37,404 nucleotides of DNA, from contig CAXHJY010000094.1 in the NCBI GenBank assembly GCA_964016885.1, forward strand, positions 1 through 37,404, read 5' to 3'. Below are positions 1 through 22,398 of the stretch, piece after piece. A model generated the notes under the pieces. That model was not told the DNA's origin and ran no database searches. It saw only the letters and a program-made list of their open reading frames with translations. The position numbers and the translations under genes are program-made. Each line of letters opens with the position of its first letter. Position 1 is the stretch's first letter. Source of the DNA: Eledone cirrhosa. Its lineage: Eukaryota.

Positions 1-1592
1 ATATATATATATATCCATATATATTATACATATATATATATCCATATATATATATCCATTTATATATATATATATATATATATATATATATATATATATA
101 TATATATAACGAAGGAAATGTGGTAAGGAACCAGGTGGACCATAACGCACCAAAGTACTCAATACTTAGGGTAATAGAGTGGGTAATAGGAACCAGTAAG
201 ACCCCGACAGCTGAGCTCAAGCCGTTTCGACGGCTAATTCTGGAGTCCAGAATTAGCCGTCGAAACGGCTTGAGCTCAGCTGTCGGGGGTCTTACTGGTT
301 CCTATATATATATATATATATATATATATATATATATATATATATATATATATATATATCCATATATATATATATATGTATATATATATATATATATATA
401 TATATATATATATATATCCATATATATATATATATATATATATATATATATATATATATATATATATATATAATCCATATATATATATATATATATATAT
501 ATCCATATATATATATATCCATATATATATATATATATATCCATATATATATATATATCCATATATATATATATATATATATATAATTATATATATATCC
601 ATATATATATATATATATATCCATATATATATATATATATATATATATATATATATATATATATATATATATATATATATATCCATATATATATATATAT
701 ATATATATATCCATATATATATATATATATATATATCCATATATATATATATATATATATATATATATATATATATCCATATATATATATATATATCCAT
801 ATATATATATATATATCCATATATATATATATATCCATATATATATATATATATCCATATATATATATATATATCCATATATATATATATATATCCATAT
901 ATATATATATATATATATATATATATATATATATATATATCCATATATATATATATATATCCATATATATATATATATATCCATATATATATATATATCC
1001 ATATATATATATATATATCCATATATATATATATATATCCATATATATATATATATCCATATATATATATATATATCCATATATATATATATATATCCAT
1101 ATATATATATATATATATATATATATATATATATATATATATATATATATCCATATATATATATATATATATATATATCCATATATATATATATATATAT
1201 ATATATCCATATATATATATATCCATATATATATATATATATATATATATATATCCATATATATATATATCCATATATATATATATATATATATATATAT
1301 ATATATATCCATATATATATATATATATATATATATATATATATCCATATATATATATATATATATCCATATATATATATATATATATATATATATATCC
1401 ATATATATATATATATATATCCATATATATATCCATATATATATATTATATATATATATATATATATATCCTATATATCCATATATATATATATATATAT
1501 CCATATATATATCCATATATATATATATATATATATATATCCATATATATAACCATATATATATATATATATATATATATCCATATATATAT
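1..1592. repeat. (TA)n microsatellite with periodic CC interruptions (ATATCC), interrupted by an element at 108-305
   Basis: Direct reading. The overlapping YI/IY-rich ORFs are artefacts of the repeat. Confidence 0.98.
108..305 (-). mobile_element. Family A fold-back element carrying a hammerhead 3' half
   Basis: Near-perfect palindrome 186-244/246-305 centred on G245, plus a unique tail at 108-185. Homologous to 9661-9712, 16982-17167 and 17383-17536. Flanked by (TA)n. Confidence 0.8.
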
Positions 1593-1887
1593 GTTTTATC
1601 TAGGCACACTCCACGTACACATACCCATCCATTTGTTTAATGGTACCGTCACTGCCTGATGCTAACAGAATCACCGATTCCTTATCGCGTTTTGAAGAAT
1701 TTCTCAACACCTACCAAAGCTACTCTATTGAATGTCCGACATTGATTTGTTTAAAAAGAGGACAAGAAACTAGTTTTATTGTTTACCGGTTAAACCTTAC
1801 AGGTGTTTGCACTAATTCCAACATTACAAATTGAAAATTATTATTAGAAACTGTTTTAAATCTTTCAATCCACTAAAGATTTCCTTC

Positions 1888-2830
1888 TGTGTGTGCACAT
1901 ATGTTTATACGTATATATGCGTCTATTCGCGCCAGTCGCAGTGTGTGTATGTGAGATTGTATGTGTATATTGTTTATATATGCGTGTGTTTGCGTCACTC
2001 GCTGTGTGTGTATGTGAGATTGTGTGTGTGTATATATGTGTGTATATGCGTGGATTTGCGTCAGTCGCTGTGTGTATATATGTTTATATATGCGTGTGTT
2101 TGCGTCACTCGCTGTGTGTGTATGTGAGATTGTGTGTGTATATATGTTTGTATATGCGTGGGTTTGCGTCACTCGCTGTGTGTGTATGTGAGATTGTGTG
2201 TGTATATATGTTTGTATATGCGTGGATTTGCGTCAGTCGCTGTGTGTATATATATGTTTATATATGCCTGTGTTTGCGTCACTCGCTGTGTGTGTATGTG
2301 AGATTGTGTGTGTATATATGTTTGTATATGCGTGGGTTTGCGTCACTCGCTGTGTGTGTATGTGAGATTGTGTGTGCATATATGTTTGTATATGCGTGTG
2401 TTTGCGTCACTCGCTGTGTGTGTATGTGAGATTGTGTGTGTATATATGTTTATATATGCGTGTGTTTGCGTCACTCGCTGTGTGTGTATGTGAGATTGTG
2501 TGTGCATATATGTTTGTATATGCGTGGATTTGCGTCAGTCGCTGTGTGTATATATGTTTATATATGCGTGTGTTTGCGTCACTCGCTGTGTGTGTATGTG
2601 AGATTGTGTGTGTATATATGTTTATATATGCGTGTGTTTGCGTCACTCGGTGTGTGTGTATGTGAGATTGTGTGTGTGTATATATGTGTGTATATGCGTG
2701 GATTTGCGTCAGTCGCTGTGTGTATATATGTTTATATATGCGTGTGTTTGCGTCACTCGCTGTGTGTGTATGTGAGATTGTGTGTGTATATATGTTTGTA
2801 TATGCGTGTGTTTGCGTCACTCGTAGTGTG
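1888..2830. repeat. Minisatellite of about 64-bp units (TTTGCGTCACTCGCTGTGTGTGTATGTGAGATTG...) mixed with shorter GGATTTGCGTCAGTCGC units
   Basis: Recurrent TTTGCGTCA core embedded in TG/TA dinucleotide tracts. Confidence 0.95.
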
Positions 2831-19190: not shown

Positions 19191-19557
19191 TATATATATA
19201 TATATATATATATATATATATATACACATTCCTGAGTACACACATAACATATTTTTTTGCATATACACATATACATACATACATATATATTTTTATGTTG
19301 CAGTGACATCATTTAACAAAAGTCTTAATCCAATTGACAAGGTCTCTATGATATCTAAAAGGAAGCTGGTTTATGTAACATTCTCAGTTTCCAAGCAAAG
19401 TTTGTCCTAATTCCGCCATTTTATAGATTTTTTTTAAAGACATAACATGTCTTTTATTGAAAGATCTCTAGTTTCACAAATATAATACCCTTCCTCTCTA
19501 CCTCTACATCTATCTACTTAGTTCTATATTTCAGTCTACTCCGGTAGAGGGCCGACG

Positions 19558-21645
19558 GAGGTGTTGGTGGTGCCGACGGTGGTGGTGGTGGGGCTGATGG
19601 TGGTGGTGGTACTAGTGGTGTTGATGGTGGTGGGGCTGATGGTGGTGGTGGTGGTGGTACTAGTGGTGTTGATGGTGATGGTGGTGGTGGTACTAGTGGT
19701 GTTGATGGTGATGGTGGTGGTGGTACTAGTGGTGTTGATGGTGGTGGTGGTACTAGTGGTGTTGGTGGTGGTGGTGGTGTTGGTACTAGTGGTGTTGATG
19801 GTGGTGGTGGTGGTGGTGTTGGTACTAGTGGTGTTGATGGTGGTGGTGGTACTAGTGGTGTTGATGGTGGTGATGGTGGTGGTGGTACTAGTGGTGTTGA
19901 TGATGGTGGTGGTCGTGGTGGTGGTGGTACTAGTGGTGTTGATGGTGGTAGTGGTGGTGGTACTAGTGGTGTTGATGGTCGTGGTGGTACTAGTGGTGTT
20001 GATGGTAGTGGTGGTACTAGTGGTGTTGATGGTGGTAGTGGTGGTGGTACCAGTGGTGTTGGTGATTGTGGTGGTGGTACTAGTGGTGTTGATGGTGGTG
20101 GTCGTGGTGGTACTAGTGGTGTTGATGTTGGTAGTGGTGGTGGTACTAGTGGTGTTGATGGTCGTGGTGGTGGTGGTACTAGTGGTGTTGATGGTGGTAG
20201 TGGTGGTGGTACTAGTGGTGTTGATGGTCGTGGTGGTGGTGGTACTAGTGGTGTTGATGGTGGTAGTGGTGGTGGTACTAGTGGTGTTGGTCGTGGTGGT
20301 GGTGGTACTAGTGGTGTTGATAGTGGTGGTGGTGGTACCAGTGATGGTGGTGGTGTTGATGGTCGCGGTGGTACTAGTGGTGTTGATGGTGGTGGTCGTG
20401 GTGGTGGTGATACTAGTGGTGTTGATGGTGGTAGTGGTGGTGGTACTAGTGGTGTTGATGGTGGTGGTCGTGGTGGTGGTGGTACTAGTGGTGTTGATGG
20501 TGGTGGTGGTACTAGTGGTGTTGATGGTGGTGGTCGTGGTGGTGGTGGTACTAGTGGTGTTGATGGTCGTGGTGGTACCAGTGGTGTTGGTGATGGTGGT
20601 GGTGGTGGTGGTACTAGTGGTGTTGATGGTGGTGGTGGTACTAGTGGTGTTGATGGTGGTGGTCGTGGTGGTACTAGTGGTGTTGATGGTCGTGGTGGTA
20701 CTAGTGGTGTTGATGGTGGTAGTGGTGGTGGTACTAGTGGTGTTGATGGTCGTGGTGGTACTAGTGGTGTTGATGGTGGTGGTGGTGGTGGTACCAGTGG
20801 TGTTGATGATGGTGGTGGTGGTGGTGGTACTAGTGGTGTTGATGGTCGTGGTGGTACTAGTGGTGTTGATGGTGGTAGTGGTGGTGGTACTAGTGGTGTT
20901 GATGGTCGTGGTGGTACTAGTGGTGTTGATGGTGGTGGTGGTGGTGGTACCAGTGGTGTTGATGATGGTGGTGGTGGTGGTGGTACTAGTGGTGTTGATG
21001 GTGGTAGTGGTGGTGGTACTAGTGGTGTTGATGGTCGTGGTGGTACTAGTGGTGTTGATGGTGGTAGTGGTGGTGGTACTAGTGGTGTTGATGGTCGTGG
21101 TGGTACTAGTGGTGTTGATGGTGGTGGTGGTGGTGGTACCAGTGGTGTTGATGATGGTGGTGGTGGTGGTGGTACTAGTGGTGTTGATGGTGGTAGTGGT
21201 GGTGGTACTAGTGGTGTTGATGGTGGTGGTGGTACTAGTGGTGTTGATGGTGGTAGTGGTGGTGGTACCAGTGGTGTTGATGATGGTGGTGGTGGTGGTT
21301 GTACTAGTGGTGTTGATGGTGGTGGTGGTACCAGTGGTGTTAAAGGTGGTACCAGTGCTGTTGATAGTGGCGGTGGTGGTGGTGGTTCTAGTGGTGATGA
21401 CGGAGGTGGTACCAGTGCTGTTGATAGTGGCGGTGGTGGTGGTGGTTCTAGTGGTGATGACGGAGGTGGTACCAGTGCTGTTGATAGTGGCGATGGTGGT
21501 GGTTGTACTAGTGGTGCTGACGGAGGTGGTAGTAGTGGTGGCGGTACCAGTGCTGTTGATAGTGCTGATGGTGATGGTGGTGGTGATGGTGGTACTAGTG
21601 CTGTTGAGGGTGGTAGTGTTAGTGATGGTGCTGGTGCTAGTGGTC
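19558..21645. repeat. (GGT)n-derived minisatellite with core GGTACTAGTGGTGTTGAT
   Basis: Dozens of variable-length units, all differing by whole triplets. Confidence 0.95.
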
Positions 21646-22398
21646 GACCTCTCCGCAATTAATTTGACTATATTGTGCCTTGTCCCGCTTTCTCTCCCTC
21701 CATCTCCCTCTCTCTCTCGCACGCGCTTTTTCTCTCTCTCTGTGTATGTATATATATATATATATATATATACTGTGAGAGCCCTGGTTTTCTGTTGAGC
21801 TCTGCTGATGAATGAAATCCAACCGTGACCATCTCCACTGAAAGTTTTCATGAAATAGTCTTTTAAGACTATACAGAGCATTTGATGTTATTCCAAATTG
21901 AAGGATAAGTGTTTCAAACTTATTTTATCATGAGTTAAAGGTCTATTGATTTTTCCCAGAATTTCAATAAATTCTGTGGATGAATTTGTATCCTGATTCT
22001 CTTTTGAGATGAGTTTGAATTATTTTTCCTAAATCTTACGTTAACTACTTTTCCCATATTGACGTTATAGTCGCTTATATGTTATAGAATGCTGTTAGCT
22101 TCTTGCTAAAACAATCTCTATACCTCTCATTTATATATATATATATATATATATATATATATATATATATATATATATATATATATATGTGTGTGTGTGT
22201 GTGTCTGTGTATTTATATATATATAAATGAAGTATTTCCGTAGGAAATGTAAATGAAAAGAGAGTGCTCTATGTAGGCTACAGAGTTTTTTTGTTATGTA
22301 ATAAACAGGATATATTTAATAAACATTCCATTTTATTCTTTCTGATACCTGAAGACATATAAATATCTGTCTTCAAGAAACCACTGGTAAATGAATTA

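Follow-up and report, generated by a model that had tools for sequence, protein, structure and literature searches.

Hammerhead-bearing islands between TA repeats of Eledone cirrhosa: probable 3' ends of Penelope-like element insertions, with a bulged hairpin in their tails

Introduction

Penelope-like elements (PLEs) of the Hydra clade insert in (TA)n microsatellites (Craig et al. 2021, PMC8557442), and the supplement of that paper lists Hydra-1_Obim of Octopus bimaculoides with a (TA)n preference. The present analysis concerns an entire unplaced contig of Eledone cirrhosa (CAXHJY010000094.1, assembly GCA_964016885.1; genome 3.0 Gb), here called the window, which is 37,404 nt long and in which short islands, several with hammerhead ribozyme motifs, are strung between (TA)n tracts and simple arrays. 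Hammerheads in TA repeats are known Penelope biology and have already been listed for the octopus Hydra element; what appears to be new beyond that biology is a cis-hairpin in the element tail and a rule by which inverted insertions end once at each of two sites, X and Y. The reading that we favor, at a probability of roughly 0.7, is that the islands are 3' ends of PLE insertions in (TA)n, with families A, B, and D (and likely G) being ends of coding Hydra-clade elements, families C, E, F, and the 310-bp unit (family H) being non-coding and likely copied by such enzymes, and starts at X and Y that would be guided by the hairpin.

As far as the available text of PMC8557442 describes it, the Hydra clade of C-terminal endonuclease-positive (EN+) PLEs resembles the families studied here in its diagnostic protein motifs, single open reading frame (ORF), and terminal-repeat hammerhead, and also in its (TA)n targets, 5' truncation, inverted copies, and a tail at one end, the last of which is known qualitatively for PLEs (PMC8557442; PMC3846280). 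The Eledone elements depart from that description in having 3' untranslated regions (UTRs) of ~0.8-1 kb, stem II regions as long as 81 nt, tails of ~65-175 nt where 30-40 nt is described, and one young family whose 5' core is fixed in a non-canonical form (CUGANGA in 0/25). A tail hairpin is visible by eye in a published Hydra terminus, and the words "hairpin" and "stem-loop" do not occur in the text of the supplement.

The second comparator is the non-LTR (long terminal repeat) retrozymes, which are non-coding tandem monomers with one type I hammerhead each and a GC content <45% (Cervera and de la Pena 2020, PMC7229834; 10.64898/2026.07.22.740005), and which are described as derived from PLE termini, with monomers of 51-972 bp (Li, Clavereau, Pollet 2026, 10.64898/2026.07.22.740005). 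Families C, E, F, and H share their monomer structure and low GC with metazoan non-LTR retrozymes, for which the accessible portions of both sources propose a PLE origin and a PLE helper. They differ in monomers of up to 1311 bp, in (TA)n insertion, and in PLE-type X and Y ends and inversions, and E and F moreover carry a cis-cassette that is assignable to the Hydra clade.

A third comparator is the PLE Poseidon of Anolis carolinensis, in which the tail ends are two internal start sites of the reverse transcriptase (RT) and which can do without hammerhead catalysis in vitro (Frangieh et al. 2024, PMC11167929). On the text available, the likeness extends to two internal start sites that bracket the tail, an AT-rich target, a hammerhead upstream of the starts, a predicted dimer, and the nicking and extension of both strands, which for our elements is proposed. 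The Poseidon element differs in that the start is located in an "AC-rich stem loop" within its ORF, and the same text contains neither a conserved bulged hairpin nor a count of one X and one Y end. Finally, the window motifs resemble the minimal dimeric PLE hammerheads (Cervera and de la Pena 2014, PMC4209133, as described in the text at hand) in being type I, with a short stem I, an enlarged stem II, an extra base after position 9, and a palindromic stem III, and in the presence of many unrelated families per genome; they differ in stem II regions that reach 81-95 nt and in a family F motif that folds as a complete monomer.

Results

Hammerhead motifs in the islands

The type I descriptor required a stem I of >=4 bp, CYGANGA, a stem II of >=3 bp with up to 120 nt, GAAA, a stem III that was either a hairpin or palindromic, and UH. 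It matched 13 times in the window, five times in islands and eight times in the 310-bp array, and all 13 motifs have the C3-A9 core, GAAA, UH, and stems I-III, which the window copy of family G and family A lack. By core and stem pattern, the motifs in the islands are real type I motifs. The first-pass annotation had named five hammerhead sites, and those in families B, C, D, and E stand (Table 1), with the longer stem I that it gave to C (to 4105/4240) arising from a deletion in this copy, and it had overlooked the complete hammerhead of family F. The fifth site, in family G, has the core CTGATAC and fails both strict and relaxed scans; its relatives keep CTGAYGA intact in 15/19 cases, so that the hammerhead family is real and the window copy a decayed member of it. 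The 310-bp unit, which had been said to hold 3' halves, instead holds eight full minimal hammerheads across 28675-30896, while family A was correctly described as a 3' half only in the window, with CUGANGA <=70 nt upstream of the GAAAC half in 0/51 copies.

A chance origin is unlikely, as had been argued from the density of the motifs. Over 1000 dinucleotide shuffles of 44 islands (14,401 nt, positions 1-22,400), the mean was 0.018 motifs and the maximum 1, against the five found, so that the motif frequency is far above that of shuffled islands, and chance folding as the source carries low weight. The islands are also unrelated in sequence, as claimed, with no blastn match between any of the eight window families at E<=0.01. 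A scan for minimal hammerheads with a 4-nt palindrome gave three rows, too few to act as a control. The best 150 of 534 Rfam rows for the window contained no hammerhead family and consisted of matches, miRNA-type or other, to simple repeats and hairpins. In most motifs stem III is palindromic and stem II is preceded by an extra base, and in predicted cofolds two copies were more stable than two monomers for 7/7 hammerheads tested, with dimer pairing of stem III appearing in those of C, D, and H; the family F hammerhead is a complete monomer in its minimum free energy structure.

The microsatellite association that was proposed for the window also holds across the genome, as judged from a sample of 60 evenly spaced 10-kb regions (599.8 kb). 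This sample contained 43 hammerheads, 15 of which come from one array, at a density of ~1 per 14-21 kb. A (TA)6 started <=200 nt downstream in 35 of the 42 hammerheads with room for it, versus 14% of background positions, and when one hammerhead was kept per locus and family the figure was 18/25, versus a permutation mean of 5.3 and a maximum of 13 in 5000.

Coding parents of families D, B, A, and G

Dispersed copies exist of every family, and the first-look candidate counts, which are lower bounds and unequal to copy numbers, are at least 2189 for A, 112 for B, 2724 for C, 2321 for D, 843 for E, 2377 for F, 1970 for G, and 213 for H; the 20-30 loci examined per family were the best-scoring of each search. 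In other genomic copies, D extends upstream through a 3' UTR into a Hydra-type RT/endonuclease ORF, and the hammerhead lies downstream on the ORF strand in 14/25 loci. An 812-aa open frame of D (locus L196) contains RWK, DKT, CxCX5C, CxxC, and CxH and is without CCHH, the combination that defines the Hydra clade in the available text of PMC8557442. The D protein has 400 homologues at E<=1e-20, and its AlphaFold model (predicted local distance difference test, pLDDT, 82.7) has telomerase RTs as its seven best Foldseek matches. YRDD is present in 5/7 distinct D loci, and the same RT stretch is found in A-linked loci. A C-terminal VY...YIG, recognized by eye, aligns weakly to a Pfam-positive GIY-YIG protein and has no Pfam match.

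For family B, the sequence from ORF end to hammerhead is contiguous in L049, over ~1 kb, and L053 has the same UTR; only the C-terminal 173 aa of the B parent protein are covered. Family A lies ~0.8 kb past another Hydra-type ORF, which is upstream on the same strand in 11/25 loci and whose protein contains RWR and DKT. The CxCX5C linker, together with CxxC and CxH in the C-terminal endonuclease and no CCHH, is found in D, the B parent, and the sister of G. Identity of the window copies to the ORF-linked termini is 96% for D, 92% for B, and 90-91% for A, and all three families show (TA)n insertion, truncation, inversion, and a tail. The terminal-repeat hammerhead is canonical in B and has a U4C core in D, and the 5' core of the A parent is non-canonical, with CUGANGA in 0/25 loci from a search that favored copies like the query. 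This A parent is young and abundant and keeps the hammerhead stems and the 3' half (L332-L356, e.g. G000:C1:63007230).

When placed by protein motifs, A, B, and D are best described as 3' ends, truncated or inverted, of no fewer than three separate autonomous Hydra-clade PLEs. Their termini lie downstream of Hydra-type RT/endonuclease ORFs, which bears out the Penelope-like link drawn in the first-pass annotation. That annotation was also right that the PLE coding part is absent from the window. Family G is probably also a truncated end of a Hydra-clade PLE, with a sister of G following a fourth ORF (L262, read by eye); blastn did not join the window copy of G to this ORF-linked sister subfamily.

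Two other routes to a coding parent were abandoned. A Pfam GIY-YIG search of the genome led to Neptune-like elements and provided no route to the window families, and a hammerhead family with stem III ACTAGT that had been linked to a Hydra ORF was dropped, there being no core within 1.5 kb of the ORF end. The Neptune-like RT/GIY-YIG elements (L154, L155, L157, L165, L110) have two end sites and no bulged hairpin, and carry their own minimal hammerhead ~0.4 kb past the ORF.

Non-coding monomers of families C, E, F, and H

Families C, E, F, and H consist of head-to-tail monomers of 702, 1311, 631, and 310 bp, respectively, with one type I hammerhead per unit, a GC of 33-39%, tandem copies at several loci, and no tblastn match to 123 PLE-type proteins at E<=1e-3. 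Monomer structure classes all four as retrozyme-like, with C, F, and H within the reported size range and E beyond it. The earlier description of the elements as non-autonomous is apt for these four and not for the ORF-linked A, B, and D, which were rejected as self-contained non-coding retrozyme monomers because they continue into ORFs. A link of H to a Neptune-like element (L082/L202) was also rejected, the two being separate adjacent insertions, and an RNA search with the 310-bp unit gave no RNA match among the matches listed.

The C monomer at L120 has, ~60 nt upstream of its working core, a second CTGATGA core for which no GAAA half was seen. In older relatives of the 310-bp unit (~70% identity; L202:5420-5815; L021-L030), the tail retains a short motif, perhaps a reduced form of the bulged hairpin, whose 3' strand it matches. 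L315 and L161 contain arrays of another hammerhead monomer with a period of ~420-510 nt and a (TA)n tract between units. Inside D, the internal (TA)n showed only changes in tract length, with no nested insertions, in the five copies viewed.

Insertion ends

In most families the ends that adjoin (TA)n are bimodal, falling at X and Y with the tail in between. The order along an element is hammerhead, X, linker, bulged hairpin, remaining tail, and Y, in many cases with another such hairpin past Y. H and the Neptune-like family also have two end sites, F has almost only X, and C has X only, without Y ends, and inserts uninverted in 22/22 cases. Among 140 inverted insertions, 135 have one X and one Y, three have two X, and two have two Y, and without B and G, whose queries favored the XY arrangement, the count is 109/114. 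No description of this rule was found in the literature, most subscription papers lying outside the search.

The bulged tail hairpin

Beyond X, after a mostly AU-rich linker of 6-17 nt, most tail copies of families A, B, D, E, F, G, J, K, L, and M have a motif of ~25 nt that takes the form RYTC, a variable stem-loop, a 2-nt 3' bulge, and GARY, where the outer 4-bp stem is ACTC/GAGT, GCTC/GAGC, or GTTC/GAAC and the inner stem is variable. It occurs in 10/16 reference tails versus 0.058 expected, and per copy in 99/117 for A, 11/15 for B, 26/27 for D, 17/21 for E, 10/11 for F, 22/30 for G, and 21/28 for K.

A held-out set comprised 78 Hydra-type loci on metagenome contigs, 47 with a hammerhead on the element strand; motifs with <130 nt downstream were removed (9/56) and the rest formed 36 clusters. 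The strict hairpin is positioned 36-56 nt past the cleavage site in 20/36 clusters versus 0.53 in shuffled sequence, with one on the reverse complement and none upstream. Sequence anchors alone are present in 31/36, and the 2-nt offset gave >=3 Watson-Crick pairs in 16 of these, where other offsets gave as many in 0, 0, 0, and 1; the first inner pair is U-A in 16 and C-G in 13. The bulged hairpin is conserved in Hydra-type elements of other organisms. Rfam has no family for it (13 of the 78 metagenome loci), and no description was found in the literature, the search leaving aside most subscription papers and the supplementary RNA fold of PMC11167929, which may bear on it.

In read-through copies a second hairpin appears 6-16 nt past Y, in 1/4 rows of D, 1/6 of the A parent, 4/4 of E, and 8 rows shown of 12 for F, with a weak inner stem in the latter two; none is present in H.

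Other features of the window

The window copies are collected in Table 1. At 8345-8380 (-) and 3720-3740 (-), another PLE type has left decayed ends, seen by eye, that resemble minimal hammerheads. Between (TA)n tracts, a GC-rich (60%) island at 17561-18602 has a broken reading frame that resembles the restriction-like endonuclease end of non-LTR retrotransposons; it has no Pfam or PDB match and has a 77% relative in L162. One repeat, present at 4504-4690, 4813-4965, and 6268-6487, directly abuts (TA)n and resembles a tRNA-derived short interspersed nuclear element, with ARAGORN finding no tRNA. A 33-bp GT-rich minisatellite with open frames and arrays of 29 bp and 64 bp occupy 19549-21650, 11689-12448, and 1900-2830, and ~11 kb of degenerate (TA)n surrounds the 310-bp array (22399-36934).

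Table 1. Element copies and motifs in the window
Feature	Position	Strand	Details
Family A, inverted insertion	109..302	-	truncated 3' end, Hydra-type PLE lineage; 90% over 136 nt to ORF-linked terminus in L346
Sense arm of the above	247->109	-	hammerhead 3' half, X site, tail, Y end at 109
Inverted arm of the above	248-302		X end
Bulged tail hairpin, family A	157..180	-	
Family C, 5'-truncated copy of 702-bp non-coding tandem monomer	3935..4268	-	X end 3935
Type I hammerhead, C	4110..4236	-	95-nt stem II region
Upstream piece of C	4239-4268		attached through internal deletion
Solo tail, sister family of D	4314..4459	-	(TA)n both sides; 79% to tail in L025
Inverted fragment related to family B	5274..5415	+	tail hairpin 5334-5358
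Family E, inverted insertion from 1311-bp non-coding tandem monomer	5463..5978	-	Y end 5463, X end 5978
Tail hairpin, E	5493-5528		
Type I hammerhead, E	5587..5660	-	palindromic stem III
Second 3' half, E inverted arm	5718-5742	+	
Another repeat inside the E insertion	~5746-5922		
Family D, 5'-truncated 3' end of autonomous Hydra-clade PLE	6964..7294	+	X end 7294; 96% over 332 nt to terminus downstream of ORF in L197
Type I hammerhead, D	7132..7239	+	core CCGAAGA, 81-nt stem II region, palindromic stem III
Family B, fold-back insertion without 5' core	7776..8003	.	Y end 7776, X end 8003
Tail hairpin of the above	7833-7857	-	
Family A, fragment	9657..9710	+	
Family A, inverted insertion	16985..17170	+	subfamily nearest ORF-linked parent; 91% over 137 nt to L346
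Family A, inverted insertion with deletion	17386..17535	+	tail hairpin 17464-17487
Family B, insertion, 3' end of second Hydra-type PLE	18968..19190	-	X end 18968, inverted tail to 19190; 92% over 164 nt to terminus ~1 kb past ORF end in L049
Type I hammerhead, B	19003..19073	-	palindromic stem III
Family F, 5'-truncated copy of 631-bp non-coding tandem monomer	21773..22131	+	X end 22131
Type I hammerhead, F	21799..21879	+	folds as complete monomer (minimum free energy)
Family G, inverted insertion	22226..22398	+	hammerhead 22335-22396, decayed core
Family H, two opposed arms of 310-bp non-coding monomer	27632..31020	.	Y end 27632, X end 31020; inversion near 30025-30036; 8 intact minimal hammerheads

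Discussion

The hairpin is likely an RT start signal, and the insertion of these elements might proceed as follows. An endonuclease would nick both strands of (TA)n, and the RT, held at the hairpins, would start at two internal sites, X for one strand and Y for the opposite one, after which the cDNAs would stall, often at the long stem II, and would then join head to head. Such a two-strand start scheme resembles L1 twin priming. The RNAs of E and F, which keep the whole cassette without an ORF, would be mobilized in trans by Hydra enzymes; H and C, for their part, may depend on a reduced form of the signal or on a different helper. Cleavage by the hammerhead may help to release monomers and is probably optional for insertion, on which point the non-canonical core of the A parent and the in vitro Poseidon result agree. 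A more specific proposal, which we hold tentatively and at slightly worse than even odds, is that the twin hairpin is a clade-wide RNA address of Hydra RTs, where a dimeric enzyme would take one hairpin per subunit and prime X and Y on opposite (TA)n strands, with the cassette RNAs of E and F inserted in trans.

Several observations count against hairpin-guided insertion of PLE ends. The canonical hairpin is present in 0/65 tail rows of H, 0/7 of C, and 0/12 of the Neptune-like family, and because H and the Neptune-like family have two sites without it, the hairpin is not required for two-site ends in general. Family F inserts mostly uninverted (18/19) despite its hairpin. The hairpin descriptor was first drawn by eye from tails of this genome, with only family K and the metagenome set held out, and the two hairpin copies in 22/35 metagenome clusters were counted with a looser pattern without a shuffle control, as were the second hairpins of E and F, where one inner pair was counted. 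On the coding side, the D protein has no sequence match in Pfam or PDB, and the ORF link of G is indirect, via its sister subfamily. No empty target site was seen.

The main rival explanation, which we consider unlikely, is that the hairpin belongs to the 5' UTR or to a promoter and acts in translation start, transcription start, or RNA stability, and that X and Y are set only by AU-rich stretches annealing to nicked (TA)n. The tail does double as the 5' UTR of the next unit, as at L346, where the A tail continues into the next ORF, and in D read-through an ATG follows ~25 nt after the second hairpin, so that a role in translation or transcription is possible; this too weighs against a start signal. 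AU-rich linkers follow both X and Y, and H has two end sites without the motif. However, the hairpin occurs twice, each time at a similar short distance past an end site, it is kept, with compensatory changes, in E and F, non-coding families that offer no ORF for translation, and other AU-rich UTR stretches rarely serve as ends.

The first-pass annotation had inferred that all families are independent non-autonomous ribozyme elements with one common Penelope-like helper, which now appears improbable. It fits the non-coding, dispersed C, E, F, and H and the hairpin that E and F have in common with D, and 15/51 family A copies have one common junction, though the search query contained that junction. 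Most family A junctions differ, however, the variable ones falling in the long stem II, and A, B, and D run into three different Hydra-type ORFs, which largely refutes a single shared helper for these families. There are also many candidate helpers, with Hydra-type ORF remnants (30-85% identity) in 9/60 sampled regions and Neptune-like ones in 5/60, and H and C are without the canonical hairpin. Least probable of all, and only barely credible, is the view that the monomers are satellites from PLE termini that spread at the DNA level, with (TA)n arising untargeted by slippage at their ends, which would suit the very dense (TA)n (1242 runs in 599.8 kb), the lack of an observed empty site, and the local tandem amplification discussed in the accessible text of the retrozyme preprint (10.64898/2026.07.22.740005), but against which speak near-identical monomers on many chromosomes, fixed X and Y ends, variable 5' truncation, inversions, and (TA)n on both sides of 17/22 direct C and 16/18 direct F insertions.

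The 25-nt motif makes it testable how a PLE RT picks two internal start sites and which enzyme mobilizes animal retrozymes, and the one-X-one-Y rule limits the ways in which insertion can proceed. With ~1 hammerhead per 14-21 kb in the sample, these elements account for much of the shape of the microsatellite landscape in this genome. If the twin-hairpin proposal is true, the hairpin pair would be the first defined cis-signal that ties animal retrozymes to a named helper clade, the RT of that helper would be a sister to telomerase, and cassette RNAs would enter microsatellites in trans.

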